A stretch of 64,000 nucleotides of DNA, from positions 12,419 through 76,418 of the forward strand of contig JACOXH010000003.1 of NCBI GenBank assembly GCA_016176415.1, written 5' to 3'. Source of the stretch: Candidatus Daviesbacteria bacterium. Lineage in GTDB: Bacteria; Patescibacteriota; Microgenomatia; Daviesbacterales; UBA10151. The notes under the pieces are model-generated. The model searched no databases. It was not told where the DNA came from and saw only the letters and a list, made by a program, of their open reading frames with translations. The position numbers and the translations under genes were made by a program. Position 1 is the stretch's first letter. Each line of letters opens with the position of its first letter. Positions 1-54,644 of this stretch are shown piece by piece.

Positions 1-1025
1 AAACTTCAAAACTAAGAGAACAAAGAAGAATAATTGTGGAACTGCCGGGGATAAAAGATGCCTCCGTTGCAGCCAGTTTGGTGGGAAAAACAGCGCAGCT
101 GGATTTTAGGGAACTTTCCCCGGAGGCAGAACAATCTGAAGCGACTCTTTCTGGTGTTCCTCTCGCGGCTTTAACAAAGTCCACGGGATTAACAGGGGCA
201 GATTTGAAAAAAGCTGAGGTGACTTTCGGGTCAGGAGGAGGAAAAAGCGGGCCGCAGGTGGCAATAGAATTTACCTCTGAAGGCAGCAAAAAATTTGCAG
301 AAATTACCAAAAGAAACGTGGGCAAACCATTGTGCATATTTTTAGACGATATTCCTGTACAGGATGGGTGTCCTACAGTTGAGCAGGAAATTATCGGAGG
401 TAGCGCCGTAATAACAGGTCAATTTACTACCCAGCAAACAAAGGAGCTGGCAGTTCAGCTTAATGCAGGCGCTTTGCCTGTCCCAATTAAAATTATTGAA
501 CAGCACTCTATTGGACCAACATTGGGTCAGGAGTCGGTAAATAAAAGTTTAGTTGCAGGTATTATTGGTCTTGGGATAGTTGCCTTATATATGGCAGCTT
601 ATTATGGTTTGTTGGGACTAATTGCAGATGCAGCTTTAATTATCTATACGCTTTTGGTTTTGGCAATTTTTAAAACAGGTTTATTTTTACTTCCTCCTGT
701 AACTTTAACTTTGGCAGGAATTGCCGGATTTATTTTATCAATCGGAATGGCGGTTGATGCAAATATTTTAATTTTTGAAAGAATGAAAGAAGAGATCAGG
801 TGGGGTAAAAGTAAGCAGATGGCTTTAGAGTTAGGGTTTAAAAGGGCTTGGGTATCAATTTGGGCCTCCAATGTTTCATCTCTTATGACCGCTGCAATTT
901 TAATTGGGATGGGAACATCTTTGATCCGCGGATTTGCCATAACTTTAACGATAGGAGTATTGGTATCAATGTTTACAAGTTATATAGTAACCAGAACTTT
1001 TTTAAGATTGATAATAAAGTATTAG
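1..1025 (+). CDS. secD: Protein-export membrane protein SecD (5' end truncated by window edge)
   Basis: Open frame runs to nt 1. '...IVELPGIKDASVA...TAQLDFREL' matches SecD periplasmic motif (E. coli '...VQLPGVQD...ATLEFR'). C-terminal multi-TM region typical of SecD. Confidence 0.8.
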   Translation, partial: TSKLREQRRIIVELPGIKDASVAASLVGKTAQLDFRELSPEAEQSEATLSGVPLAALTKSTGLTGADLKKAEVTFGSGGGKSGPQVAIEFTSEGSKKFAEITKRNVGKPLCIFLDDIPVQDGCPTVEQEIIGGSAVITGQFTTQQTKELAVQLNAGALPVPIKIIEQHSIGPTLGQESVNKSLVAGIIGLGIVALYMAAYYGLLGLIADAALIIYTLLVLAIFKTGLFLLPPVTLTLAGIAGFILSIGMAVDANILIFERMKEEIRWGKSKQMALELGFKRAWVSIWASNVSSLMTAAILIGMGTSLIRGFAITLTIGVLVSMFTSYIVTRTFLRLIIKY

Positions 1026-1026
1026 T

Positions 1027-1899
1027 ATGAAATTTAAAATAAAAAAACCACACTTTGAATATTTAAAAAATAAATGGGAATTGCGTCATCAGGCTATTCA
1101 AAATAATTTTTGGGATAATCATGGTCAGTCTTTAAAGCATCTGGCAATTGGTTCTTTAGGAGGGTTAATGCTGTTGTCTTCACCGGTTCATAAAGAGTTG
1201 TCTCCTCCTCATTTGGCTGTCAGTCGTGATGATGTAATGAGGGGTTTTGATAAAAATGTGCTTTTGGCTCAAATTTTGGCAGAAACTGTGCCCACAGAAG
1301 TAAGACCTTTAACTTCTGATGAAGAGAAAGAAATAACTGAAGTTTTATCCAAAAATTTTGGCTTTAAAGTTACGGTAGAAATGGATGATATAAAGCTTAA
1401 CAGAAACTATGGTTTGATTGGAGGGGAGCAGCATTTATATAGATACCCCGGTGATAATTTATACGCTCACGCAGATACTACTTCTGATTGGGCAAAATAC
1501 GGGGGTTCTGGGATTGCGCCGGGATTGGGAGCATGGGGACATTTTGCTTATTCAAAAGAAAATTTTACTCCTCAGGATAAGCTTAGAGAGCGTTATTATC
1601 TGGCAATACAGACATTTTTAGCGCCGGGTTTTGCAGAAAATTTTGCCAAATACAGGGATTTTTTCAAATACAGAAAAATGCTGGTAGTCAACGCTAAAAC
1701 CGGTCAGGCAGTAGTGGCAGTAATAGGTGATGCAGGACCTGCAGAGTGGACGGGAAAACATCTGGGAGGGTCACCGGAAGTAATGGATTATTTAGGACTT
1801 GCCCAGGGACCAAGAAAAGGGGCAGTGCTATACTTTTTTATTGATGACCCAAAAGACGAAGTGCCTTTGGGTCCGGTGAAAGTGAGGAGCGAGGCCTGA
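1027..1899 (+). CDS. Hypothetical protein inserted between secD and secF; C-terminal 'VIGDAGPAEWTGKHLGGSPEVMDYLG' weakly resembles DPBB/3D-domain proteins
   Basis: 290-aa ORF starting 2 nt after secD stop. No confident family from sequence alone. Confidence 0.4.
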   Translation: MKFKIKKPHFEYLKNKWELRHQAIQNNFWDNHGQSLKHLAIGSLGGLMLLSSPVHKELSPPHLAVSRDDVMRGFDKNVLLAQILAETVPTEVRPLTSDEEKEITEVLSKNFGFKVTVEMDDIKLNRNYGLIGGEQHLYRYPGDNLYAHADTTSDWAKYGGSGIAPGLGAWGHFAYSKENFTPQDKLRERYYLAIQTFLAPGFAENFAKYRDFFKYRKMLVVNAKTGQAVVAVIGDAGPAEWTGKHLGGSPEVMDYLGLAQGPRKGAVLYFFIDDPKDEVPLGPVKVRSEA

Positions 1900-2237
1900 T
1901 GAAAAATATTTTCTTTTATACACATTTGATTGAAATAGAATCTGTAACCAGAGAACTTGATCAGTTGGATTTATCACAAGAAGAGCGCCATCATTTGGCC
2001 CACCTGGTTGACTCCAGTATCCATCACACTATTTTGGATGCAATCTTTTCTAAATTATCTGAAACTGATAAAAAAGTTTTTCTAAATTACTTAAAAGATG
2101 ATGATCATCAAAAAATTTGGAATTTTTTAAATGAAAAAACAGAAAATATTGAAAGTAGTATAAAAGAAGCAGCTCAGGAGTTAAAAGAACAGTTAAGAAA
2201 AGATATTAAAGAGGCAAAACTAAGAGGAAAAATATGA
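1899..2237 (+). CDS. Hypothetical acidic/coiled-coil protein
   Basis: 112-aa ORF, start overlaps previous stop (ATGA). Charged, helical composition. Confidence 0.35.
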   Translation: MKNIFFYTHLIEIESVTRELDQLDLSQEERHHLAHLVDSSIHHTILDAIFSKLSETDKKVFLNYLKDDDHQKIWNFLNEKTENIESSIKEAAQELKEQLRKDIKEAKLRGKI

Positions 2238-3121
2238 ATAATTTAATGCGGTACAAAACTTTATATTTTATTCTGTCTTTGCTAATTATTCTGCCGGGCC
2301 TTTATTATTTGGTAACTTCAGGAGTGAAGCTGGGAATAGATTTTACAGGTGGGGCATTGCTTGAATATCAGTTTGAAAAAAGCATAAATTCAGATGAGTT
2401 AAAAAAAGAGATATCAAATAGGGGTATTGAAGTAGGTCAGGTTACTTCTTCATCTGAGAATACTTATATTATCAGAACAAAACCTATGGAGCAGGAGAAG
2501 ATAGGTAAATTAAAGTCTGATCTTAGTGAAAAATTTGGCAAGATAGAGGAGAGAAGAATAGAATTTGTAGGGCCTGTGATCGGTTCAGAATTAAGACAAA
2601 AAGCAGTAATTGGTATTGTGCTGGCCTCAATAGTGATAGTTTTGTATATTGCTTACTCTTTCAGAAAAATACCCAGACCTCAATCATCATGGCGTTTTGG
2701 GGTAGCAGCTGTACTGGCTTTAGTTCATGATATTTTGGTAGTGGCAGGAGCTTTTGCAATTTTAGGGCATTTTGCAGGAGTAGAAGTTGATACTTTGTTT
2801 GTAACAGCGCTTTTAACAATAATTGGTTTTTCTGTTCATGACACAATTGTGGTGTTTGACAGAATCAGGGAGAATTTGACAAAACACATAGGCAGGAAAT
2901 TCGTGGATGTAGCAAATCTTTCTATAGTTCAAACTATTGGCAGATCTTTAAACACGTCCTTAACCGTAGTATTTGTACTTCTTGCCCTGCTTTTATTTGG
3001 AGGAGAAAGCTTAAGGTGGTTTGTGGTGGCTTTGCTTGTAGGTATCGTTTCGGGAACTTATTCTTCAATTTTTAACGCCACAGCAATGCTTGTCTGGTGG
3101 GAAGAGCGGTTGGGTCATTAA
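2234..3121 (+). CDS. secF: Protein-export membrane protein SecF
   Basis: 'GIDFTGGALLEYQF' and C-terminal 6-TM region with 'FDRIREN' typical of SecF. Start overlaps upstream stop. Confidence 0.85.
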   Translation: MNNLMRYKTLYFILSLLIILPGLYYLVTSGVKLGIDFTGGALLEYQFEKSINSDELKKEISNRGIEVGQVTSSSENTYIIRTKPMEQEKIGKLKSDLSEKFGKIEERRIEFVGPVIGSELRQKAVIGIVLASIVIVLYIAYSFRKIPRPQSSWRFGVAAVLALVHDILVVAGAFAILGHFAGVEVDTLFVTALLTIIGFSVHDTIVVFDRIRENLTKHIGRKFVDVANLSIVQTIGRSLNTSLTVVFVLLALLLFGGESLRWFVVALLVGIVSGTYSSIFNATAMLVWWEERLGH

Positions 3122-4539
3122 GCGAGCTCTTTTATTCTGTTTAATAAGTAATCTTTATTGTTTTTTTCAGCGTTTTCTAAAACTTCTTCAAAAAGTTTTT
3201 GTAAAATTTCACCAATTTTAGGACCGGATTTAATATTTAATACCTCCATTATATCATTACCGTTTACTTTTAAATCTGAAATAGAAAATGGTTTTTGTAA
3301 AACCTGTTTAATTCTTTCATTGAATTTTTCCATTCTCCAAGAGACCGCTCTTTGTGTGCCTCCCCCCAGTCTGTCACCTATTCTCACTGCCATCATATCC
3401 TCAATATTTTCCAGCCCCACGTTATTAATAAAACGCCTGATGGCAGAATCAGTTTGATTTTCATCTACTGTAAAAAGATGCCATCTGACTAATTTGTATA
3501 ATTTATCAGTTTGTTTTTTGGATAAATTAAATCTTTGGGCAATTTGTAAAACTAACCTTCCTCCGTAAACATCATGGTTGTAAAAGGTAACATTGCCATC
3601 GCTTTCAGTTTTGACAGTTTGCACTTTGCCGATATCGTGTAAAAGTGCAGCTAATCTGACTAGGGAATTTTTTGATGGAGTATGCTGTAAAGTCATCAGA
3701 GAGTGTTCTCCTATATCGTAAACTCTGTCATGCTTGGGTCCTTGCTGCACAATACCAAAACATCTTTCCAGCTCAGGTAAAATAATTTGCAATATTCCTG
3801 CCTCCCTTAATTTGTTGATACCCTCAAGAGGGTTCTCAGCTGATAAAATTTTAAATAACTCATTTCTTACCCTTTCTTTTGCAATTTCCTCAATAAGTCC
3901 TGCATTTTCTTTTATTGCTTCAAAAGTTTTAATTTCTATCTCAAACTTTAATTGAGTAGCAATCCTTATTGCTCTTATCAACCTTAAGGCATCTTCTTTA
4001 AACCGATCATTGGGATTTCCAACAGTGCGAATGATTTTATCATGTATGTCTTTTTCTCCATGATAAGGATCTATGAGAGTCAAGTCGCTAGAATCTAGAG
4101 TCAAAGAGTTTATTTTCCTAGACTCTTGACTCTTGACTCTTGACTCTATACCCAAAGCAATAGCATTAATAGTAAAATCCCGTCTGGCTAAATCCTCTTC
4201 AATTTTATCAGTCCAGCCAACCTGGGCAGGGTGACGGAAATCTTTATAGTCACCCTCCTTCCTCATGGTAGTGACTTCGAAAACTTCCACCTCGGGGGAG
4301 TCAAAGCCCACCCCCGAGGTGTTCTTCGTCGGTATTCCCACAGTGCCGAATTTATTGTCGTAAAAGCCTTCAGGGATAATTTTTAAAATTTCCTCTGGTT
4401 TGGCATCAGTAGTAAAGTCCCAGTCGTTAACTTCTTTACCCATTAAAATGTCTCTGACTGCCCCTCCGACAATGTAAATTTGAAAACCGGCTTTTTGAAA
4501 CTTATTTAAAATATCTTCTACTTCTTTAGGTAAGTGCAT
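3118..4539 (-). CDS. cca: CCA-adding tRNA nucleotidyltransferase / poly(A) polymerase family with HD domain
   Basis: N-terminal 'IYIVGGAVRDILMG...DWDFTT' is the pol-beta nucleotidyltransferase head. C-terminal 'LAALLHDIGK' is the HD domain. Contains in-frame repeat insertions (see repeats). Confidence 0.75.
   Translation of the reverse strand: MHLPKEVEDILNKFQKAGFQIYIVGGAVRDILMGKEVNDWDFTTDAKPEEILKIIPEGFYDNKFGTVGIPTKNTSGVGFDSPEVEVFEVTTMRKEGDYKDFRHPAQVGWTDKIEEDLARRDFTINAIALGIESRVKSQESRKINSLTLDSSDLTLIDPYHGEKDIHDKIIRTVGNPNDRFKEDALRLIRAIRIATQLKFEIEIKTFEAIKENAGLIEEIAKERVRNELFKILSAENPLEGINKLREAGILQIILPELERCFGIVQQGPKHDRVYDIGEHSLMTLQHTPSKNSLVRLAALLHDIGKVQTVKTESDGNVTFYNHDVYGGRLVLQIAQRFNLSKKQTDKLYKLVRWHLFTVDENQTDSAIRRFINNVGLENIEDMMAVRIGDRLGGGTQRAVSWRMEKFNERIKQVLQKPFSISDLKVNGNDIMEVLNIKSGPKIGEILQKLFEEVLENAEKNNKDYLLNRIKELA
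4078..4147. repeat. Low-complexity insertion inside cca: inverted 'gagtcaag/cttgactc' plus 4 tandem heptamers 'gactctt'
   Basis: Direct reading: 4121-4147 gactcttgactcttgactcttgactct. Translates in-frame as 'ESRVKSQESRK'. Confidence 0.6.
4284..4321. repeat. REP-like hairpin copy (CCACCTCGGGGG-AGTCAAAGCCCA-CCCCCGAGGTG) inserted in-frame in cca
   Basis: Perfect 11-bp inverted repeat with 12-nt loop. Shares core CCACCCCCGAGGTG with the IS200-like element ends at 59000/59716. Confidence 0.7.
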
Positions 4540-4605
4540 ATATTTATGGATCCCATAACGAGTATGGGATGACAGTTACACTGTCATTTTACCCCGTAGC
4601 TGTCT

Positions 4606-6282
4606 ATGATACAATGCAGCTTGCAAAGGAAACTAAAAGTGAAGTGGAGAATACTGCCAAAAAAGTCAGATAGTTTAACAGAGCAGCTTTTGATAAACCG
4701 CGGTATAAAGAGCGAAAAGGAAATAAAACAATTTTTTAACCCCAGGATTTCAGATTTTGAAAAAGATTTACAAATCCCCGGTACTTCAAAAGCGCATAAA
4801 AGAATTCTGGAGGCAATAAAAAAAGAGGAACTGATAGCAGTGTATGGAGATTATGATGTAGACGGGATTTGCGCCTCGGCAATTTTGTATAAGGGTTTAA
4901 CATCAATTGGGGCAAAAGTCCTACCGTATATTCCTCACAGAGATAAAGAAGGGTATGGACTTTCTGTTACCGGACTTGATTCCATTAAACTGTCAGGCGC
5001 AAAGTTGGTAATTACTGTAGATAACGGGATTGTAGCAGTAGAACAGGCAAAATATGCTAAAAGTTTAGGACTGGATTTAATTATTACAGATCATCATATC
5101 CCGGGTGATCAGGAGCCTGATGCTTATGCAATAGTTCATTCAACAAAAATGTGTGGGGCCTCTGTGGCATGGTGTTTAACCCGTGACCTTATTAAAGAAG
5201 ATTTATCAGAGGAGCTTTTACAATTTGCAGCCATAGCTACAGTTTGTGATCTTTTGCCTTTGGTGGGTTTAGGCAGGGGATTCGTCACAGAAGGTCTTAA
5301 GGTTTTAAGAAGCACCACTAATCCCGGGATATTGGCACTTTTGAATGAAGCGGGTGTATCGGTTGGAAATATCAGCTCTTTTGAAATAGGTTTTATACTA
5401 GGTCCAAGACTTAATGCTATGGGCAGAATGGAGCATGCCATAGATTCTCTGCGTCTGCTTTGCACCAAAGATCCGGTTAAGGCAAGAAGTTTGGCAAAGC
5501 TTTTGTGTAATACCAACGCCAGTCGTCAAAAATTAACAACAGAGGCTTTGGAAGAAGCTAAAGAGATGGTTAAAAAAGACAGCAAAATTCATATTTTATA
5601 CTCAAAAAACTGGTCAGCAGGAATCATAGGACTCGTGGCAGGGAGGGTTTGTGAAGAATACTCGCTACCTGCAATTGCCATTTCAGTAGGGGAAGAAATT
5701 TCCAAAGGTTCGGCCCGTTCTGTTGACGGTATCAATATTGTGGAAGTAATCAGGAAGCATGCTGATATTTTAATTGATGTAGGAGGACACAAAGGGGCAG
5801 CAGGATTTTCTATTTTAAGCAAACATTTAGAAACTTTTAAAAAAAGATTAGAGCAGATAGTTTTGACAGTGCCGGAAGAGAAGGTTTTGGAAATTGATGC
5901 TGAGGTTTATAGCAGTCAGTTAAATAAAACTTTAATAAAAGAGCTGGAGAAATTTGAGCCTTTTGGACTGGATAACAGAAGGCCTGTGTTTGTTTCATTT
6001 AACATGAAAGTATCAGATATCAGAACTGTGGGGAATGGAAAACATTTGAAATTTAAAATTTCTTCCTGTCATTCTGAGCACATTTGCTTCGCTCAGTGTA
6101 AACTCCGCGAAGAATCTAATTATATTGATGCTATAGCATTTGGCATGGGAGAGTGGGAAAAGCTGCTTAAGACAGGACAGATGATAGATTTAGCTTTCAA
6201 TATAGAACTTGATACTTATGGTGGATTTGAAAAAGTGCAATTAAAAGTTAAGGACTTGAGAGTGGGGCAGTTTGGAGTGTAG
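4606..6282 (+). CDS. recJ: Single-stranded-DNA-specific exonuclease RecJ
   Basis: DHH motifs 'VYGDYDVDGI' and 'ITDHHIPG'. DHHA1-like C-terminal region. Confidence 0.85.
   Translation: MIQCSLQRKLKVKWRILPKKSDSLTEQLLINRGIKSEKEIKQFFNPRISDFEKDLQIPGTSKAHKRILEAIKKEELIAVYGDYDVDGICASAILYKGLTSIGAKVLPYIPHRDKEGYGLSVTGLDSIKLSGAKLVITVDNGIVAVEQAKYAKSLGLDLIITDHHIPGDQEPDAYAIVHSTKMCGASVAWCLTRDLIKEDLSEELLQFAAIATVCDLLPLVGLGRGFVTEGLKVLRSTTNPGILALLNEAGVSVGNISSFEIGFILGPRLNAMGRMEHAIDSLRLLCTKDPVKARSLAKLLCNTNASRQKLTTEALEEAKEMVKKDSKIHILYSKNWSAGIIGLVAGRVCEEYSLPAIAISVGEEISKGSARSVDGINIVEVIRKHADILIDVGGHKGAAGFSILSKHLETFKKRLEQIVLTVPEEKVLEIDAEVYSSQLNKTLIKELEKFEPFGLDNRRPVFVSFNMKVSDIRTVGNGKHLKFKISSCHSEHICFAQCKLREESNYIDAIAFGMGEWEKLLKTGQMIDLAFNIELDTYGGFEKVQLKVKDLRVGQFGV
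6067..6117. repeat. Family-2 short repeat copy (TGTCATTCTGAGC-[insert]-GCGAAGAATCT) in-frame inside recJ
   Basis: Flanks identical to copy at 49731-49756. Contains hairpin CTGAGC...CGCTCAG. Encodes 'SCHSEHICFAQCKLREESN'. Confidence 0.6.
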
Positions 6283-22172: not shown

Positions 22173-22673
22173 GTGAAACTGCCTGTAAATATCTTTAAAC
22201 TGGTTGCATCTATTGCCCTTTGCCAGTCTGCCGGGATAATAGGCTCTTTTTTTACTGTTTCTTCCATCTCAAACTGGTATAACTTACTAAATCAGCCCTC
22301 ATTTAGACCTCCAAACTTTCTTTTTGGTCCTGTTTGGATAACACTTTATACCCTTATGGGCATCTCCTTTTACTTAATCTGGATTAAATTAGGAGATAAA
22401 AAATACAGTAAAAAAGCAAAACTCATAAAGCTGTCCTTAGTAATTTTTTTAATACACCTCTTCTTTAATGCCACCTGGTCAATTGTCTTTTTTGGCTTAC
22501 ACAATATCTTTTTAGCTCTAATAAATATTCTGGTTATCTGGGTGTTTATAGTGATTTTGATTAGTAAGTTTTGGAGTTTAGATAAAAGAGCATCTGTTCT
22601 GCTGATTCCATACCTGGCTTGGGTAAGCTTCGCCACCATCTTAAACTACAGCATCTGGATTTTAAACAGATGA
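22173..22673 (+). CDS. tspO: TspO/MBR family tryptophan-rich sensory protein
   Basis: 5-TM protein with 'PSFRPPNFLFGPVWITLYTLMG' and 'LLIPYLAWVSFATILN'. Confidence 0.8.
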   Translation: MKLPVNIFKLVASIALCQSAGIIGSFFTVSSISNWYNLLNQPSFRPPNFLFGPVWITLYTLMGISFYLIWIKLGDKKYSKKAKLIKLSLVIFLIHLFFNATWSIVFFGLHNIFLALINILVIWVFIVILISKFWSLDKRASVLLIPYLAWVSFATILNYSIWILNR

Positions 22674-22703: not shown

Positions 22704-23264
22704 TTACTCGGTTTTGCCGGTGAGGAGAGCGTCAATAATATCATGAGGTAACGCGGCAGCATTAAGTAAAGCTTTTCGAACGATTCCACCTGTTTCTGAT
22801 CCTATTTCATCTGCTGCCCTAAGGGTTCCCATTACCGCGCTCCTGGCCAGTTCTCCTGAGTCTGCACCAATGTCGCCTGCTGCTTTAATTGCTCCCTGTA
22901 CAGAAGATATAGCCACTTCTCCTACATCTTCACCAACTTTAGAGGCTGTTCTAACAGCTTGTGAAGCTGCTTCTCCTGCCGCTTCCGTGGTATTTACACC
23001 TGTATCTTTTGCTCCATCAATAACTCCTCTTACCAAACCTGTAACTCCATCAGTCAGGGATGCTCCTGTTGAGGAGACAGCTTCTAAACCTTCACCTACT
23101 ACATCATCAACAGTTTGAAGGCCTGTGACAGCTACATCTCCCGCTCCAGATATAAGTTTGACAACATTTTTCCTGGCTACATCCTGAACAGTTGAGGCAA
23201 CATCACCGGCACCGGATACTACAGAAGAAAGAGCATTTTTTAAATCATCAGTCAAATTTGCCAT
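22704..23264 (-). CDS. Gly/Ala/Asp/Val-rich repetitive protein
   Basis: Repeats of 'GAGDVA.TG / GE.AS.AV / G.D.G' units; no TM. Confidence 0.5.
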   Translation of the reverse strand: MANLTDDLKNALSSVVSGAGDVASTVQDVARKNVVKLISGAGDVAVTGLQTVDDVVGEGLEAVSSTGASLTDGVTGLVRGVIDGAKDTGVNTTEAAGEAASQAVRTASKVGEDVGEVAISSVQGAIKAAGDIGADSGELARSAVMGTLRAADEIGSETGGIVRKALLNAAALPHDIIDALLTGKTE

Positions 23265-23825: not shown

Positions 23826-24497
23826 TCACCTCCTTACTGTTAATTTAATACCCAAAAGATATTCATAAATTGGCCCAAGTAGGGCTCCGACTCCAAATGC
23901 CCAGACAATCTCCTCAAGAGGAACACCTAAAATAATAAGTCCTGAAAGATTATTTATATTCCAATGCATGATAAAGTCAGGGATGAAGAAAGCAAATATT
24001 GAAAAGAACAGGAAATAAAAAAGCCCAAAGAGTAAGCCTGAATAAATAACTTTTTTTATAAGGTCTGGTCTGGTAACAGCGATAAGGGCAATATTTATTA
24101 TTATCCCGATATATACAGCATACATGAAGTTTATCTTAAATATTGTGTATGTCAGGAAGATAGCTATTACACCTGTCCCTAAAAGCAAGCCATGGAAAAT
24201 TCCTCCATTAAAACAATCACAAAGCCTTTGATGTTTAACCCTACCCTTCATAAATAGTTCATAAATTACTGCTACTATGCCGCCTACAGCAAAGGTAAAG
24301 ATAAAGTCTTCTATAGAAAGCTTGGGATTGCCAATAGTATCGGGAAGCCAGTAGCCGGGAACAAAGAAGACTTCGGATAAAGCGGCAGGAGTAACAATAA
24401 GGCTTGCTATGAGCATTTCTTTTCTTAATTTCTTTTGAGAAATAAAAATTAAAAGCCAAATGGCAAGTAGAAGCAGTGAGCCGAGCAGATAGTGCAT
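23826..24497 (-). CDS. Multi-TM protein, possibly lycopene-cyclase-domain (CrtYcd-like) family
   Basis: 'GVPLEEIVWAFGVGALLG' resembles the PxEE motif of the lycopene cyclase domain. Weak call. Confidence 0.35.
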   Translation of the reverse strand: MHYLLGSLLLLAIWLLIFISQKKLRKEMLIASLIVTPAALSEVFFVPGYWLPDTIGNPKLSIEDFIFTFAVGGIVAVIYELFMKGRVKHQRLCDCFNGGIFHGLLLGTGVIAIFLTYTIFKINFMYAVYIGIIINIALIAVTRPDLIKKVIYSGLLFGLFYFLFFSIFAFFIPDFIMHWNINNLSGLIILGVPLEEIVWAFGVGALLGPIYEYLLGIKLTVRR

Positions 24498-44372: not shown

Positions 44373-45392
44373 TTATTCGTTTACAGATTTTGGTTTTTCA
44401 ATTAATCGTTCCCATTCTTTTTGTTTTTCCGGATCAGCTATTTTATTATCTGCATTCATCAGATTATTGACAGGACCTGGTTTATAACCTGCATTGATTA
44501 AAGCTCGCATATTGTCTGTTGTTTGCAGACCAGCATAATACTTGCCGTCAGGTCCTATAAAAGTAACAGCGCCGTCATTTCCTTGCATAGAGCCAATTAG
44601 TGCAAGTCTTTTTTCTGTTTGGGTTGGATCAAAAGCCGAAGGTACAACACTGCCTTCTTCATCAGCCCACGAGGTGATTCTCTGTCCGTCAAGGCATATA
44701 AAATCACCTTCAGGCATGGTAACACCTTTTTCATCAGCCTGTTTTTGATATCTGGTAAGAACCTCAACTTTTATTTGATCTTCAGTATCCACGCTAGATT
44801 CGGTTATTTCGACGTGCACTGGTTTTAAATTATCTAAGGGGATTCCTGTCAAACTGCCCTCAATCTGTACATATCTTCGGCCATCAGGCCCTATCCCCAG
44901 ATCGTCGATAACTCTAATAGGAATGTCGCCATCCTTGGCTTCCCAAAGATATTCTCCAAGGAGAGGCTTCGTTGCTTGAGGTGATGAGAGTGCTGGTTCT
45001 GTTTGAGGGGTTGCAGGAAAATTATACTTTTTCCTTAAGGCATTTATAAACGCCTGTTCTTCAGGTTTGATATCTATACCTAAGTCTTCCCTTAGTTTGA
45101 TACTACGTTGGATAGCACCTTCTTTATTATGATGGCGCTGATCTTCAATGTATAGTTTTTTTAATCTATCAATGAAAGATGTCTGCATTACTCCCTCAGG
45201 TGCTCTTCTCACAGCTTCCAAAAGAAACGGCTGGATTTGTTCCCTGCCTTGCTCGCCTGCTGCTTGAAATAATTTATCTGCATCATCTATTAGCTGGCTG
45301 GGTTTTATTTTGCCGGACAGAACTTGTTTGGTTATACGGTCAATAGCTTTGGATGCATTTCCGGAAGGTCGGTGTTCGGGTGAAGCAGGCAT
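44373..45392 (-). CDS. Hypothetical protein
   Basis: 339 aa, no signal peptide, no family recognised. Confidence 0.4.
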   Translation of the reverse strand: MPASPEHRPSGNASKAIDRITKQVLSGKIKPSQLIDDADKLFQAAGEQGREQIQPFLLEAVRRAPEGVMQTSFIDRLKKLYIEDQRHHNKEGAIQRSIKLREDLGIDIKPEEQAFINALRKKYNFPATPQTEPALSSPQATKPLLGEYLWEAKDGDIPIRVIDDLGIGPDGRRYVQIEGSLTGIPLDNLKPVHVEITESSVDTEDQIKVEVLTRYQKQADEKGVTMPEGDFICLDGQRITSWADEEGSVVPSAFDPTQTEKRLALIGSMQGNDGAVTFIGPDGKYYAGLQTTDNMRALINAGYKPGPVNNLMNADNKIADPEKQKEWERLIEKPKSVNE

Positions 45393-45471
45393 ATTTCTTA
45401 GTGTTATTTATAATATAGTACTATATTTGACACAAAGCAAATATTTAAAGTAAGATATAAAAAGTAAGAAT

Positions 45472-47382
45472 ATGGCAGTAGAAGATCCTATCTTGAAGTT
45501 AGCTGACGAAGCCCGTAGGGCTGTTGCCCCTAGTGGGGAAAATGTCTTTAAAAGAGGTTTAAATAAACTTGGAAATTTGGCAGGCGGGGTAGGCAGAAAG
45601 GCAGGAGGGGCTTTGGGAGGTGTGGGTAATGCAGCAGGCGGTGCCAGAGATATGGCAGGAAACATGGTAGGAGGAGTAGGTCATGGCTTGGGTGCAGGAG
45701 CCAGAGCAGTTGGTGATGGGACAGTGGGGGTTTTAGGCGGAGTAGCTCATTTAGGAATTGAGGGAGCCAAATTGCCTTTTAAGGGGGCAGGAAAAGGGGT
45801 AGAACTAGCTAAAAAATTAGGTACAGAAGCTGTAATTGGGAAAGCAGGAGATGTATTGAAAAATGTTCCTGCGTTTGGTAAGTCTATTGCCGGTTTTGCA
45901 ACGGGTAAAATAGGTGAAGTAGGGGCAGGTATGGCTTCCAGAGAATTAGCCAAAGGTGTACTTGCCTGGACTGCTACTACTGCAGGAATAGGAACAGGTA
46001 TAACAGGAACATGGGTAGGCGGAGCTTTTGTAGGCGCTATGGGTGGCGCTATGATTGAATGGGGCCGGCAGATAAATCAAAATCTTAAGGAGTCAGATCC
46101 TTCTATTGCCGGAAGAAGAGCGGCTTTTTTGCTGAAATTTAAAGAATTGCGTCATGCAGGAGTATTAAAACCCCGTGATTTGAAGAAGATCCGTAATGCA
46201 GCTATTTTTGGAGCTATCGCCGGCGCAGGCGCAGGAGCATTAGTTCAATTTGTTCCGGAAATTGCCCAATTCGTCGGCGAACATTCAGGGTTTTTGACAG
46301 GAACAGGTGATACAGCGGGAGCTGCAGCAGGTACTACAGCAGATGCTTTAGGAGGGGTAGGGGGTAGTATTGGTAATGCGGCAGGAGGAATCGGAGAAGG
46401 AATTGGTGGAGTATGGAGCGGAACGGGAGAGGCTATTGGGGGTATTGCCGGTGGAGCGGGCGAAATGACGCAAGGCGTTAGAGATATGGCTGGTAACCTT
46501 CCCGGAGTCAAAGGAACAGGAGATGTTTTAGGAGGTATAGGTAATGCTGCAGGAAATGTTTGGAGTGGAACAGGTGAAGTGGCAGGAGGAGCGCTGGCTA
46601 GAACAGGAGAAACAATAGGCGGAGCCACACAAACCACTGGAGATTTTGCCCGTAGTCTTCCCATGGGACAAGGAGCTGCTGATACTTTAGGAGGGGTGGG
46701 CGGTGCTATCGGCGGAGGGTTAGGACAAGCAGGAGAAGCAATAGGAAACGCCGCGCAAGCTGTGGGGTTAGGTGGTGCGCAAGAGGCAGCCCAGCAGGCG
46801 GGTCAGGAAACAGCCCAGGGAGCAGCAGAGCAGGCAGCCGGGGAAGCAGGAAATACAGGCTTGAGTGAGACTGTACAGGCAGCGGCAGATGAGGCCAATA
46901 GTACGGCTGCACTTGATGCAAGTAATGCAGCGGTCGGTGAAGCAGTCCAACAGACCGGTCAGGAAACGGTCCAGCAAGTAGGTCAGGAAGCGCTTGAGGA
47001 AGCAGGACAAGAGGTTGCTCAAGGTACAGAACCTATTGCCAATACAATGGTGCATGGTCATGAGGTTGCAGGGTCTGTGGTTGACCAGTCTTTAACTTAT
47101 GATGGTGCCCCCTGGGTACTGCTGGAAAACGGGACTAAAAACATTGGTAATGTTTTGGAGGCTGCAGGAATTGACGGCGCTCTTGAGGCTGTTGATAAAG
47201 GTGTGTTGGCCCAAAACTTACAGCAGGCAACCAATCTTTGGACACAGGGGCAGTTAACTCCTTCTGCCTATCCTGATCTTTATACTTTATTTCATTTGAG
47301 CAACGGCACTGCCAGTGTTTATAATGATCTTTTAAATGAAGATACTGTTGATATTCTTAAGAAGTTGAAAGTATTAAAGTAA
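45472..47382 (+). CDS. Large (636 aa) Gly/Ala-rich repetitive protein with central hydrophobic stretch and Gln/Glu/Ala-rich tail
   Basis: Dozens of 'G.(A/V)GG.(G/A)..G' units (e.g. GNLAGGVGRKAGGALGGVGNAAGGA), 'WTATTAGIGTGITGTWVGGAFVGAMGGAMI', then 'QQAGQETAQGAAEQAAGEAG'. Confidence 0.5.
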   Translation: MAVEDPILKLADEARRAVAPSGENVFKRGLNKLGNLAGGVGRKAGGALGGVGNAAGGARDMAGNMVGGVGHGLGAGARAVGDGTVGVLGGVAHLGIEGAKLPFKGAGKGVELAKKLGTEAVIGKAGDVLKNVPAFGKSIAGFATGKIGEVGAGMASRELAKGVLAWTATTAGIGTGITGTWVGGAFVGAMGGAMIEWGRQINQNLKESDPSIAGRRAAFLLKFKELRHAGVLKPRDLKKIRNAAIFGAIAGAGAGALVQFVPEIAQFVGEHSGFLTGTGDTAGAAAGTTADALGGVGGSIGNAAGGIGEGIGGVWSGTGEAIGGIAGGAGEMTQGVRDMAGNLPGVKGTGDVLGGIGNAAGNVWSGTGEVAGGALARTGETIGGATQTTGDFARSLPMGQGAADTLGGVGGAIGGGLGQAGEAIGNAAQAVGLGGAQEAAQQAGQETAQGAAEQAAGEAGNTGLSETVQAAADEANSTAALDASNAAVGEAVQQTGQETVQQVGQEALEEAGQEVAQGTEPIANTMVHGHEVAGSVVDQSLTYDGAPWVLLENGTKNIGNVLEAAGIDGALEAVDKGVLAQNLQQATNLWTQGQLTPSAYPDLYTLFHLSNGTASVYNDLLNEDTVDILKKLKVLK

Positions 47383-47383
47383 A

Positions 47384-47734
47384 ATGGATCCAATTACGCA
47401 GAATGTAAATGCAAATATTGAAGAATATATAAACAGTTTAGCTGCTGAATGTTTACAGGCACAGGGAATTGTTAACCTTACACAAGAGCAAAAGGATGCA
47501 TTTGCCGCTTCTGTGCAGGAATATCTTTCCCAAGCAGCTCTTGAGGTTTTGGTAAATAGACTTAATTCTGAACAATTAAGCCAGATTGAGAATCTTGATC
47601 CTGCAAGCGATGAGATGATGGAAAAAATACAGCAACTGGCAGCTCAGGTGCCAGGATTGGCAGACGAGATGGAGAAAAGATTCAGATCCGATGTAGAATA
47701 TATAAAACAGAATTCTAAAGTTCCTCAAGGTTAA
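47384..47734 (+). CDS. Hypothetical acidic Gln/Glu-rich helical protein
   Basis: 116 aa, starts 2 nt after previous stop. Confidence 0.4.
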   Translation: MDPITQNVNANIEEYINSLAAECLQAQGIVNLTQEQKDAFAASVQEYLSQAALEVLVNRLNSEQLSQIENLDPASDEMMEKIQQLAAQVPGLADEMEKRFRSDVEYIKQNSKVPQG

Positions 47735-47754
47735 AAACAGGAGGTGATTTTAAA

Positions 47755-47886
47755 ATGATGGGTGGGGGATATGGTGGAATGATGGGTGCAGGTTTTGGGT
47801 TTTTTGGAACAATCTTGTGGATAGTAATTGTAGCTGATCTTATTCTTCTGGGTGTGTGGCTTTTTAAACAAGTAAATAAGAAATAG
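47755..47886 (+). CDS. Small Gly-rich TM peptide MMGGGYGGMMGAGFGFFGTILWIVIVADLILLGVWLFKQVNKK
   Basis: Strong SD 'GGAGGTGA' 7 nt upstream of ATG; below track cutoff. Confidence 0.35.
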   Translation: MMGGGYGGMMGAGFGFFGTILWIVIVADLILLGVWLFKQVNKK

Positions 47887-51410: not shown

Positions 51411-51722
51411 AGCAAGATGGAAAATAAACAAATAGTAAGGTATGCTGAAAGTATGTTGGGATTTACATTAAAAAGATTTTTAATTACTTTAGGGGCAAGT
51501 GTAGGGGTATGGATTATATCTGCTATTATTCAGGCGTACTTAACTTTTGGGAAATATATAGGCACATTTTCAAGCGGTTGTCAGGTGACTGGATATCCAA
51601 TAGATGTGTGCGCATTAAGAGGTCCAGATATTCCTGCAATTTTAATCATTATTATTAATATCGTTTTTTGGTTTTGGGTTTTACATTTTATATTTAATTT
51701 GTTTAACAAACGCGCTAAATAA
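51402..51722 (+). CDS. Small membrane protein
   Basis: 106 aa, 3 TM. Confidence 0.3.
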   Translation: MIKSKMENKQIVRYAESMLGFTLKRFLITLGASVGVWIISAIIQAYLTFGKYIGTFSSGCQVTGYPIDVCALRGPDIPAILIIIINIVFWFWVLHFIFNLFNKRAK

Positions 51723-54644
51723 ACTAAAAGAAGCAAAAGATGCTACGCTCCCTGAAACTATAAGCAGCCCTCCAAGAATTTCTTTATAAGAATAACCAGT
51801 ATTTTGGTTTATTGATAATTGTTTTTGTTGATCTAGAAATCCCTCTTTATTTATCTGATCAGAAATTTCATCAGGGTTTTTAAAAGTAATTCCCAAAATA
51901 TCAGATTGAGAAAGTATAGAATCAGGAGATTGGTTTGTTTTACTGCCAATGTTCACCCCGGAGGTGTTAACCTGGTTACTGCTTGCGCCCACCTCCGGGG
52001 TGGTGCTGATGGAAGATGGTGCCGGAGTAGGTGATAGAGCAATTTGAATAGTAAAGGTTTGAGGGATTTCCTCATTTCCTAATTTGTCTATTGCCTTAAT
52101 TTGTAATGTAGTAGTACCGGGAGTTGAGATGGTAAAAGGTTCTGAATAAGTTTGAACAGTTTGGCCGTTATCTAAACTGTATTCAATTTTTAATATTCCT
52201 GCTTCTGTATCGCTGGCAGTTAGAGTAATGGTAACGGGTCCTGTATAAATACCTGAAGAGTTTTTAGTACCGGAGATTTGTATAGAAGTAGAAGGAGGGG
52301 TTTGATCTGTAGCTGCAGAACCGGTTACTTCACTGGTAGAAATAATAGTGGTGGTAGTTGAGCCCTGATAAAGATTTAGAGAAGGAGAGGTATCTAAAGA
52401 TGGATCAAGGTCAAATTCTATTTTATCTGCAAAAGAAATACTCAGATCTTTATAAAGAGTAGTTTTGGAGATTTTATCTTCTCTGTAAGTTCTTTTTTTA
52501 AGATTGGTAGTTTTAGAGCTGTTTGAAGGGTTTTTCCGGGTAGCTTTAACTTTTACTTTGGAAGCTTTCTTTTTTACAAAAGCATGTTTGGTATTACCGG
52601 AAGTAGTACAAGTTACGTCAGGAATATTTTCTTCGATTTCGCCATTATCATTTAATCCACAGTGGCGGTTTTGATCGTCATATAAATCAAGTTCTCCGTC
52701 ATCCAAAGTTAATTGCTCGCCTTCCAAACTTATTTTTTCGCTCTTAACCTGAACAGGAATAGCTAAATTATCATCATTTAAGATTCCTCTTACAGCTGCC
52801 ATTGCAGGACCGCTGCTATTAACAAGATCACTGTGCTTTTGTTCTACATAGTAAATTTGAGAAGCTCCGGAAATATCTAAAGAATCATTTTTTAAAGAAG
52901 CGCTATAAAGGGGGACAGTGCCGTCACCGTTAATAAAAATTTCATCTCTTTTTGTAATGAGATTAATTGGCCATGTGATCCACCAAGTTTCGTGAATTTG
53001 TCCTAAGGTAGGTTGTGATGTGCCAACTATTTCATATGCAATAACACCATTTGCTTGGTTAAGGGTGACATCAAGACTGTGAAATTGTTCTGCGATCCCA
53101 AAAGTAGTCATGTTGTAATTAAGATTTGTTAAAAGTGTTTTTATCTGATTAAAATTTAGGGAACCTGTAACGTTGTTATTATCAATATCGCGATCATCTT
53201 TAAAAGGATATAATATTTCATTCCTTGAGTTATCATAAAAATCAAAGTATTTGTTTGACGGTAAAAGTTGAAAAGCGCTCGAAAAATTTTGGAAAAGATC
53301 TTTAACTTCTGATGATGGAATACCGAGATAAAAATCTCCCAATATTTGCCTACCTAGAGGCTTGCCATACATCAGAGCTTTTGTAGCATCTACTGCTCCC
53401 AAATGGGGAACACCTAGTTCAATTAATTTATTTACCTTTGTAGCCTTTGAAGAATCTGAAATATAATACCTGGCTACTAAACCGCCCATGGAGTGAACAA
53501 CTAAATTTACCTGTGATTGTCCGGAGGCAATCCTGGCTGATTCTATTAAAGCATCTAAGCTGTCTTTTGTGCTTCTGACATCTTTTCTCCAGTCGTATGG
53601 AAAAACAAAAAAGTTTGTGCCCTTGTTATATCCCATTTCAGCAAAAAAGGAATCAATTTGCGAATAACCATCAGAAACTAAAGCTCCTGTTAAAGATAAA
53701 TCTGCTTCTGAAGTTACCCCATCAGATTTTAATTTCAATACATCAAAATAATCATCATTACCCAAGGCAGCTGCCTCATTTGTGTTAACCCAAATTTTTT
53801 CATCAGCTGTATATGCATGAGAATATGTTCCCCCGTGTCCATTATCAGCAGACCACACAATATCTTGAGTAGCTTTCATTTCTGATCCACCAATTCCGGG
53901 GATAAAAATTACAGGAAGTCTGGGCGGAGATGGTGGAGGAGAGTTGTTGTTTAAAACAAAGTATAAATCATTTTTATAGTAACCAAAAATATTACAACCA
54001 AAACTTGCAGTTTGTGAGTTCCAAATATAAGAGGAGGCATTACACACTCCATTATCAAAAGCATATCTGACTCCTCCTCCGGTGAAATAATCATTAGAGG
54101 TGCCGCTATAATTTGCAGTAGCAAGCTTCATTCTTTTGCCTCCCCATTGAGCTGCATTTGCATTTGTTAAAAGAATTAAATATCTGTGACCGAAAATAAA
54201 TTCATAATTTCTGCAGGAAAAATCTATGGTAACGTCTTCATACCCTGCAGGAACACCTGTAGTGGTAAATGTTAGACCTGTCAGTGGATCTGAGGCATTT
54301 GAGACACAGGGAATAGTGTATGAATTATTGTTGTCTTTATCGTAAATTTTAGTATTTAAACCAGCGAAATCAAACTGATCTATATTTGAAGCAGAAGTTG
54401 AAACCCTGAAAGTAAAATTTTCCAGTGTTCCTGAAAGGTTGTTTCCGAGTTCTTGAATTGCCTGCCAGACATTTAAAGTGGAATCGTATCCTTGTGTTTG
54501 TTCTGCTACAGAAACTGCATAAGATGGATGGGTGAAAGTCACAAAAACTCCTCCCAAAAGGGCAAACCCGAAAATTAGGGCAATTGGCAGTTTTTGATTC
54601 ACTTTTACTAAAATGATTGTTGATCGTGAAAAAGGGAAGCGCAA
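51681..54644 (-). CDS. Large (987 aa) secreted alpha/beta-hydrolase (lipase/PGAP1-like GxSxG 'VHSMGG') with C-terminal Ig-like domain and hydrophobic anchor
   Basis: N-terminal signal/TM, 'VIFIPGIGGSE', 'LVVHSMGGLVARYY', Thr/Ser-rich linker, beta-rich domain, C-terminal hydrophobic + basic tail. Confidence 0.55.
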   Translation of the reverse strand: MRFPFSRSTIILVKVNQKLPIALIFGFALLGGVFVTFTHPSYAVSVAEQTQGYDSTLNVWQAIQELGNNLSGTLENFTFRVSTSASNIDQFDFAGLNTKIYDKDNNNSYTIPCVSNASDPLTGLTFTTTGVPAGYEDVTIDFSCRNYEFIFGHRYLILLTNANAAQWGGKRMKLATANYSGTSNDYFTGGGVRYAFDNGVCNASSYIWNSQTASFGCNIFGYYKNDLYFVLNNNSPPPSPPRLPVIFIPGIGGSEMKATQDIVWSADNGHGGTYSHAYTADEKIWVNTNEAAALGNDDYFDVLKLKSDGVTSEADLSLTGALVSDGYSQIDSFFAEMGYNKGTNFFVFPYDWRKDVRSTKDSLDALIESARIASGQSQVNLVVHSMGGLVARYYISDSSKATKVNKLIELGVPHLGAVDATKALMYGKPLGRQILGDFYLGIPSSEVKDLFQNFSSAFQLLPSNKYFDFYDNSRNEILYPFKDDRDIDNNNVTGSLNFNQIKTLLTNLNYNMTTFGIAEQFHSLDVTLNQANGVIAYEIVGTSQPTLGQIHETWWITWPINLITKRDEIFINGDGTVPLYSASLKNDSLDISGASQIYYVEQKHSDLVNSSGPAMAAVRGILNDDNLAIPVQVKSEKISLEGEQLTLDDGELDLYDDQNRHCGLNDNGEIEENIPDVTCTTSGNTKHAFVKKKASKVKVKATRKNPSNSSKTTNLKKRTYREDKISKTTLYKDLSISFADKIEFDLDPSLDTSPSLNLYQGSTTTTIISTSEVTGSAATDQTPPSTSIQISGTKNSSGIYTGPVTITLTASDTEAGILKIEYSLDNGQTVQTYSEPFTISTPGTTTLQIKAIDKLGNEEIPQTFTIQIALSPTPAPSSISTTPEVGASSNQVNTSGVNIGSKTNQSPDSILSQSDILGITFKNPDEISDQINKEGFLDQQKQLSINQNTGYSYKEILGGLLIVSGSVASFASFSLFSAFVKQIKYKM
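51954..52002. repeat. REP-like inverted repeat CACCCCGGAGGTG ...23 nt... CACCTCCGGGGTG inside the 987-aa hydrolase gene (in-frame)
   Basis: 13-bp arms are exact reverse complements. Confidence 0.6.

Follow-up and report, generated by a model that had tools for sequence, protein, structure and literature searches.

Membrane-anchored proteins such as TolA, ZipA, and FtsN follow a simple plan in which a membrane anchor is succeeded by a long low-complexity or helical spacer and a small C-terminal binding domain. Eleven-residue repeats, which line up residues of one class as a straight stripe along an 11/3 helix, are found in tetrabrachion stalks, apolipoproteins, alpha-synuclein, LEA_4 proteins, and perilipins, and such hendecad or 11-mer amphipathic repeats often stay disordered until they bind or assemble. 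Phage tail tape-measure proteins also contain 11-residue repeats, which vary in number and have mixed periods of 11-11-18 (PMC3271669). Here, we analyze a 64,000-nucleotide (nt) stretch of a Candidatus Daviesbacteria genome, referred to as the window, which encodes a 636-amino-acid (aa) glycine-repeat protein and, directly behind it, a 116-aa acidic partner. A model reading the DNA without database searches had described three genes at this site as one cluster, coding for a repetitive Gly/Ala-rich protein, an acidic Q/E-rich protein, and a small Gly-rich transmembrane (TM) peptide; we refer to this as the original prediction.

A lineage-restricted two-gene unit

All three open reading frames (ORFs) lie where the original prediction had placed them, on the + strand (Table 1), but only two of them belong together. 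The 636-aa and 116-aa genes form a conserved, lineage-restricted two-gene unit, in which the smaller gene follows the larger one on the same strand after 1–16 nt in 13 of the 13 loci examined. The third ORF, a 43-aa peptide, is encoded in no other locus of the pair and is adjacent to the conserved unit rather than part of it. Within the window, the two genes of the unit are separated by 1 nt, not by the 2 nt originally given, and are probably translationally coupled.

The large ORF is truly coding, because its guanine-cytosine (GC) content is biased by codon position (0.66/0.52/0.31), all four Gly codons are in use, DNA-level tandem repeats are absent from it, and protein homologues exist. A word-based search retrieved eight homologues at 37–45% identity; a periodic coding signal and relatives outside its own genome, on which the original prediction had made itself dependent, are thus both in evidence. 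With 20.8% Gly, 16.7% Ala, and an isoelectric point (pI) of 5.0, the product is also as Gly/Ala-rich as had been described.

A profile of the conserved core, searched against 1.84 billion protein representatives, recovered only 26 proteins (family representatives counted at 50% identity); E was ≤ 1e-10 for 21 and ≤ 1e-30 for 17. Short Logan contigs of a single run series account for nearly all members and NCBI and ENA assemblies for a few, and the pair is carried by only two species-representative genomes and one JGI metagenome contig. No relatives were found in IMG/VR, GenBank phages, or plasmid collections. All relative loci have 41–45% GC, compared with about 38% in the window. Two of the loci (L004 and L008; relatives are cited by their working labels) stem from metagenome-assembled genomes of binchicken co-assemblies deposited as "uncultured Gammaproteobacteria", a label that looks doubtful because the sole informatively named carrier is Ca. 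Daviesbacteria.

The 116-aa partner, for which 37 homologues at 59–100% identity were found, has a pI of 4.2 and is devoid of any hydrophobic segment, signal peptide, or TM segment. Its AlphaFold2 (AF2) model consists of five helices (predicted local distance difference test (pLDDT) 86.7; predicted template modelling score (pTM) 0.76), in agreement with the acidic helical protein expected from the sequence. Searches with this model returned no fold match, the best E values being 0.88 in PDB and 0.48 in BFVD, and the partner family has no significant match in family libraries or among PDB sequences. This confidently predicted fold is a candidate new fold. Matches to ApoLp-III and ApoC-I, obtained for the partner only, are weak and sub-threshold. 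A match to Protein A turned out to be a short repeated motif with no single stretch passing, and L012_111 was ruled out as a partner paralogue by hhalign.

The products had been called unassignable to known families, and this held in Pfam, NCBIfam, PHROG, and PADLOC as well as in PDB sequence and fold searches, none of which placed them. When the three products, 27 family members, and 35 partners were scanned against the four libraries, all matches were sub-threshold and reflected coiled coils or composition. PDB sequence and profile searches with the 636-aa protein, its core, the partner, and two types of the C-terminal head described below found no relatives, and no equivalent of the gene pair was found in the literature searched. 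We rate the pair as new at the level of family and module, because both proteins fall outside all libraries searched, the partner fold is unmatched, and the combination is undescribed in that literature. This newness is to be read in the light of candidate-phylum genomes being full of unassigned families, and it does not extend to a demonstrated new mechanism.

Architecture of the 636-aa protein and its gene neighbourhood

The 636-aa protein is a modular glycine-repeat protein with a predicted membrane anchor. Its parts (Table 1) were read from alignments, composition, Kyte–Doolittle hydropathy, and an AF2 model, which is based on an alignment of 9 sequences, has a mean pLDDT of 38, and is confident solely at about aa 581–610 (pLDDT 82–84); a PDB fold search with this model gave meaningless output. 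Several features depart from the initial description. Gly-rich repeats occupy about aa 30–100 and 284–465, roughly 40% of the protein rather than almost all of it, and there are two hydrophobic stretches (161–197 and 243–262) where one had been noted. The Q/E/A-rich tract exists, but it is not the tail, since a separate C-terminal domain (526–636) comes after it.

Across the family, the core is constant and all else is modular. Within the core, an amphipathic helix is followed by a Gly/Thr/Trp-rich hydrophobic segment, a basic loop, and a second hydrophobic helix. The first hydrophobic segment (consensus GLAGAVGGGVTGTVVAGAFVGAVSGAL) reaches a maximal Kyte–Doolittle 19-residue mean (KD19) of 1.3 and carries Trp at positions 165, 180, and 197; in the family alignments, G176, G179, and G188 are invariant and G184 nearly so. 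We read this segment as a short hairpin, because a single span would require more hydrophobicity and less Gly. AF2 breaks it at 174–176 into two short helices (low confidence), and an insertion or an Arg interrupts it in two divergent members, P0009 and P0062. The second helix has two invariant Gly residues, G247 and G251, and lies between KKIRN (N side) and PEIAQFVGEH (C side). The basic loop has a net charge of +3 to +9 in family members where it can be delimited, while everything after the second helix sums to −32 in the window protein and to between −5 and −32 across the family.

The repeat unit of the original prediction, G.(A/V)GG.G..G, amounts in essence to a hendecad, a repeat of 11 residues. 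In the main tract of the window protein, Gly autocorrelation peaks at lags 7, 11, and 18 (z = 3.4, 4.0, and 3.3; 2000 shuffles), and homologues give a stronger signal, with z up to 11.3 at lag 11 and extra peaks at 4, 15, and 22. The family's cleanest example, the L013 protein (2946–5078), contains about 27 consecutive in-register 11-mers (product residues 205–500) with the consensus x-A-G-[REG]-[TA]-[IGA]-G-[EDN]-[AV]-[LA]-G, and therefore Gly at i, i+4, i+8, and i+11. The repeat is glycine-zipper spacing within the frame of an 11/3 helix, along which Gly would form one straight stripe and Ala, Ile, and Leu an adjacent one, with charged residues and Thr facing away. The periodicity (4, 7, 11, 15, 18) agrees better with a helix than with a solenoid, and AF2 shows only coil over the main tract, with no strands; the beta-helix raised in the original prediction is thus not seen in the model, at a pLDDT of about 25. 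The safest description is that of a low-complexity tract which is disordered alone and has a latent alpha-helical periodicity. A collagen-like structure, raised earlier as an option, is excluded because the tract lacks a G-X-Y pattern and its Gly autocorrelation is flat at lag 3 (−0.04; z −0.4).

The length of the tract is variable. Among the listed members, between 0 and 151 windows of 30 aa after the anchor hold at least 25% Gly; the tract is absent in some relatives and about 350–400 aa long in others (L005, L013). The products of L005 (3502–5799) and L006 (3326–5728) are identical from the core to the C-terminus and differ N-terminal of the core by a 26-aa Gly-rich indel and several substitutions. 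Tract length therefore differs even among close strains. The original prediction had proposed to check repeat-number variation between strains; variation in length is seen between L005 and L006, and at the window locus the only other contigs are identical.

Beyond the repeat, the members differ at both ends. Their N-terminal regions, often rich in Ala, Pro, and Glu, measure between about 80 and about 350 aa. In most members, the Gly tract gives way to a true coiled coil, and the many sub-threshold matches to coiled-coil families are located in this post-repeat segment. It often includes a PEGFVPQADYD motif, which matches Pfam Phage_scaffold in 7 members and is missing from the window protein. 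The last 85–125 residues fall into at least four unrelated-looking head types, which sit interchangeably on the same body. The window type also occurs in the P0009, P0050, P0054, P0058, L005, and L006 proteins, in the last two at 62% identity. Profiles of two head types found no significant PDB relatives, and the window type has no PDB sequence relative. A LysM-like head, suspected from reading the sequence, is not supported: Pfam finds no LysM in 27 members, and no PDB profile match was obtained.

The partner is often better conserved than the core; between the window and L005, the core is 42% and the partner 75% identical. Whichever head type it accompanies, it keeps 50–84% identity, and between loci with different head types 50–76% (the divergent L003 pair set aside). 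As its identity also rises and falls with core identity (Spearman 0.54, over non-independent pairs), it goes with the core and not with the head.

Table 1. Features of the pair and of its surroundings in the window
Feature	Position (nt)	Residues (aa)	Strand	Basis or remark
ORF of the 636-aa protein (HYS95_00990, Ca. Daviesbacteria)	45472..47382	1–636	+	ORF list; 100% match to NCBI hypothetical protein
Part 1, conserved start (MA..DPILKLA.E)		1–29	+	Alignments, composition
N-terminal Gly tract, 35% Gly, 11-residue rows G-x-x-a-G-G-x-x-x-G-h	45559..45771	30–100	+	
Family-defining conserved core	45790..46284	107–271	+	Alignments, core profile search
Glycine-zipper hydrophobic hairpin, 37 residues, Gly/Thr/Trp-rich	45952..46062	161–197	+	
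Basic amphipathic loop, 45 residues, net charge +8, predicted cytoplasmic	46063..46197	198–242	+	
Hydrophobic helix AAIFGAIAGAGAGALVQFV, predicted TM anchor, N-in/C-out	46198..46257	243–262	+	KD19 1.81
Main Gly-rich hendecad tract, about 31% Gly, disordered in AF2	46321..46866	284–465	+	pLDDT about 25
Q/E/A-rich acidic helical linker, net −11	46867..47046	466–525	+	
C-terminal head domain, window type, LTYDG.PWVLLENGTKNI ... LFHLSNGT, about 110 aa	47047..47379	526–636	+	
ORF of the 116-aa protein (HYS95_00995)	47384..47734		+	ORF list; identical to NCBI hypothetical protein
ORF of the 43-aa peptide, Gly-rich N-terminus and one TM helix	47755..47886		+	ORF list
Promoter-like site TTGACA-18 nt-TAAGAT	45427..45456		+	16 nt before the 636-aa start codon; 10/12 consensus positions, consensus match only
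139-aa Pro-rich ORF inside the Gly tract	46245..46664		−	Entirely within the conserved + strand 636-aa ORF
Divergent 339-aa gene	44373..45392		−	Truncated relative of PP2C_2 phosphatase genes
186-aa Ala/Val/Gly/Asp-rich protein	22704–23264		−	Between TspO (22173–22673) and a lycopene-cyclase-domain gene (23826–24497)

The flanks of the window locus are ordinary housekeeping genes, with pentose-phosphate enzymes, VKOR, a DsbA-like protein, and an SDR upstream and a PfkB kinase, a YkuD transpeptidase, and an S11 carboxypeptidase downstream. The antisense 139-aa ORF is a shadow of the GGN-rich coding strand and no gene. Further along the window, 51681–54644 (−) encodes a 987-aa protein, large for this genome and unassigned apart from an LCAT/PGAP1-like alpha/beta-hydrolase (lipase-type) domain in its middle.

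The 43-aa gene does have the strong Shine–Dalgarno sequence assigned to it, AGGAGGTGA, 7 nt upstream. Outside the window, the peptide occurs only in identical contigs of the same population; its place in other loci is taken by RecG, a PP2C_2 protein, an AAA_5 protein, or a CsoR-like repressor. In a variant on the Logan contig P0068, the TAG stop is read through as Gln, giving 50 aa. Its GGYGGMMG-TM pattern may resemble the N-termini of SHOCT-domain small membrane proteins.

Divergently oriented upstream of the pair, the 339-aa product is 34% identical to the PP2C_2 protein of L014 (L014_695) over 138 aligned positions (E 1.4e-15). Its alignment extends as far as the start of the phosphatase domain, where the product ends; the product also shares the segment GxYxWxAxxGDxPxxVxxxLGIGPDGRxYVxxEGSxTGIP with its PP2C_2 relatives. 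PP2C_2 genes neighbour the pair in L002, L003, and L014, which makes them recurrent, though not universal, companions. Directly upstream of the pair in L005 (1667–3493), L006 (1441–3309), and L013 (1156–2922) lies a gene for a coiled-coil protein of 588–622 aa; these proteins are 53–63% identical to one another and have no Pfam match. A cut gene occupies the same position in L007. In L004 (4849–10697) and L008 (10376–17577), the pair is followed by a 1291- or 1301-aa protein with a C-terminal AAA_5 domain (dynein/MoxR-type; 79% identical between the two loci) and by a large transglutaminase-core protein. L008 also encodes, at 1268–3130, a 620-aa multi-pass membrane protein with a signal-like N-terminus, a Gly-rich C-terminal tail (…GQEIGGGIGQG…GGMMGES), and no Pfam match. 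Fic and toxin-antitoxin genes are found near the pair in some loci.

The 186-aa protein, which had been regarded as a second member of similar repeat style, has 13% Gly, a Gly signal at lag 22 instead of 7/11/18, and no sequence similarity to the 636-aa protein. Its matches to Phasin_2 (18.6 bits against a gathering cut-off of 24.9; E 0.002) and to tape-measure PHROGs (E 0.001–0.002) are sub-threshold and marginal, respectively.

A possible envelope tether and its alternatives

We propose, with a probability of roughly 40%, that the 636-aa protein is an envelope tether or stalk in N-in/C-out orientation with a variable binding head, and that the 116-aa protein serves as its cytoplasmic chaperone or adaptor. 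A structural, envelope-associated role, close to the structural and possibly surface-associated system suggested by the original prediction, fits the hydrophobic helix (KD19 1.81, positive N flank, negative C flank), the tract of variable length, and the interchangeable heads. In such a tether, the glycine-zipper hairpin (161–197) and the basic amphipathic loop would lie at the cytoplasmic face, helix 243–262 would span the membrane, and the remainder would project outward. The loop is assigned to the cytoplasm and the C-terminal two-thirds to the outside because the positive-inside rule is applied to a positively charged loop and a negatively charged post-helix region; a short hairpin at 161–197 would, in turn, leave the N-terminus inside. 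The hendecad tract would act as a spacer or stalk whose reach is set by the number of repeats, and the Q/E/A helical or coiled-coil segment together with GxxxG contacts may lead to oligomerization. The small interchangeable head might bind a ligand in the wall, the S-layer, or on a partner cell, while the acidic five-helix partner may be a dedicated chaperone or adaptor that binds the conserved core, probably at the basic loop.

Several points weigh against this proposal. The topology argument from Kyte–Doolittle hydropathy and charge is crude, and AF2 confidence for the 636-aa protein is poor. The window protein carries Gly hendecads N-terminal of the core (aa 30–100), which the tether model puts into the cytoplasm; therefore, the tract is not exclusively external. 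Moreover, searches of Pfam and PDB revealed neither LysM nor another binding domain in any head type, and neither Cys pairs nor another extracellular marker is present in the 636-aa protein. The co-occurrence statistics are weak, because the family is tiny and the core/partner pairs are non-independent. Finally, a cytoplasmic partner and recurrent PP2C_2 neighbours suit a cytoplasmic protein equally well.

The main rival takes up this last point. In a cytoplasmic membrane tether like ZipA/EzrA, the zipper segments would anchor the protein at the inner face of the membrane, the hendecads would be flexible linkers, the head would engage a cytoplasmic target, and the partner and PP2C would act in the same compartment. 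This would account for Gly tracts on both sides of the core, for the lack of a signal peptide, for a highly conserved partner that likewise has neither signal peptide nor TM segment, and for the PP2C_2 genes, or their remnant, that adjoin the pair in 4 loci; noise-level coiled-coil matches even include EzrA, DivIVA, and GpsB, although those to EzrA and DivIVA are far under their cut-offs. However, helix 243–262 is as hydrophobic as a true TM helix, its flanking charges are those of an N-in/C-out signal anchor, and head exchange between close relatives is seen more typically in exposed proteins. We consider a purely cytoplasmic tether unlikely.

Improbable, in our view, is a glycine-zipper pore or membrane perturber, whose GxxxG core would oligomerize into a channel or lesion in the manner of VacA-type zippers, holins, or alpha-pore-forming toxins and would be kept inactive by the partner. 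The idea draws on the GxxxG-type spacing of the conserved Gly residues 176, 179, 184, 188, 247, and 251, on the location of several loci among toxin-antitoxin genes, and on single-member matches to Gly-zipper_OmpA (E 0.005) and to alpha-xenorhabdolysin XaxA (E 1.6e-6). Yet the XaxA match scores 27.7 bits, where the cut-off is 125, and maps to the coiled coil instead of the core; we rejected XaxA identity for this member. Holin matches are lacking in PADLOC and PHROG, housekeeping genes flank the window locus, and a pore would leave the long repeat tract and the heads unexplained.

The variable C-terminal domains, of at least 4 types on a conserved N-terminal body, also recall a polymorphic toxin that is delivered to neighbours, with the small gene immediately 3' in all loci as its immunity gene and toxin-antitoxin and Fic genes nearby in some. 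An immunity protein would be expected to follow its toxin domain, but the 116-aa partner does not co-vary with head type (50–76% identical across types, rho 0.54 with the core), and library scans revealed no toxin, LXG, Rhs, WXG, or other trafficking domain, which makes this explanation very improbable. The least probable, a domesticated or remnant phage tape-measure or scaffold-like protein, can appeal to the variable 11-aa repeat numbers and mixed 11-11-18 periods of tape-measure proteins (PMC3271669) and to the 7 Phage_scaffold matches (best E 1.8e-6), but the window protein has neither a PHROG match nor the scaffold-like motif, relatives are absent from IMG/VR, phage, and plasmid collections, tail or capsid genes occur in none of the loci, and the gene order is unlike that of tail modules.

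Returning to the envelope tether, one may speculate, at rather long odds, that the pair is an undescribed envelope device of Daviesbacteria-like bacteria. An oligomeric glycine-stripe stalk would then reach across the wall and S-layer by a distance set by repeat number, and its head would pick a surface, be it the cell's own wall, a host cell, or a particle. The device would be loaded or regulated by the new-fold partner and, in some lineages, by PP2C-type phosphatases.

Significance and comparison with known systems

Candidate-phylum bacteria, the CPR (Candidate Phyla Radiation), have tiny genomes, are thought to depend on other cells, and have mostly unassigned surface proteins. The conserved pair, to which no library assigns a name and whose large protein joins a glycine-zipper anchor, a repeat tract of tunable length, and interchangeable heads, is a concrete candidate for how CPR cells space or attach their envelope. 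The glycine repeat in itself, in register for up to about 300 residues, poses an unusual sequence–structure problem, whether it forms a glycine-stripe helix or stays disordered. The family is very rare, with 26 representatives at 50% identity. The pair should be taken as a lead rather than a result, but as a well-defined and testable one, bearing on the structure of repeat proteins and on the envelope biology of the group.

Set against the systems introduced above, the pair shares only generic features with any known family, and its resemblances are functional. With phage tape-measure proteins, the 636-aa family has in common a variable number of 11-residue repeats, 7/11/18 spacing, hydrophobic Gly-rich segments, and variation in length. 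It differs in that the repeat is marked by Gly instead of Trp or Phe and that a conserved small gene lies downstream, whereas tape-measure genes have chaperone genes upstream; moreover, the 636-aa protein has no Pfam or PHROG tape-measure match, no phage context, and no viral relatives.

The 11-residue periodicity also links the 636-aa protein to tetrabrachion and the lipid-binding 11-mers. Here, however, the stripe is made of glycine (31% Gly) beside Ala, Ile, and Leu, AF2 predicts coil, and neither the window protein nor 27 members matched an LEA_4 or apolipoprotein family in Pfam. The Pfam glycine zippers and Rick_17kDa_Anti 2TM domains resemble the hairpin in having two short Gly/Ala-rich helices with GxxxG spacing over about 36 aa. 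No member matched PF13436, PF13488, PF13441, or PF05433 at gathering score (1 of 27 gave a match at E 0.005, the window protein none), and in the present family the hairpin is embedded in a 170-aa conserved core together with a basic loop and a third helix.

In overall layout, the 636-aa protein shows the same order of anchor, spacer, and small C-terminal domain as TolA, ZipA, and FtsN. It has no homology to these proteins and realizes this order by different means: a Gly hendecad spacer, a three-segment glycine-zipper anchor, an interchangeable head, and an obligate small acidic partner.

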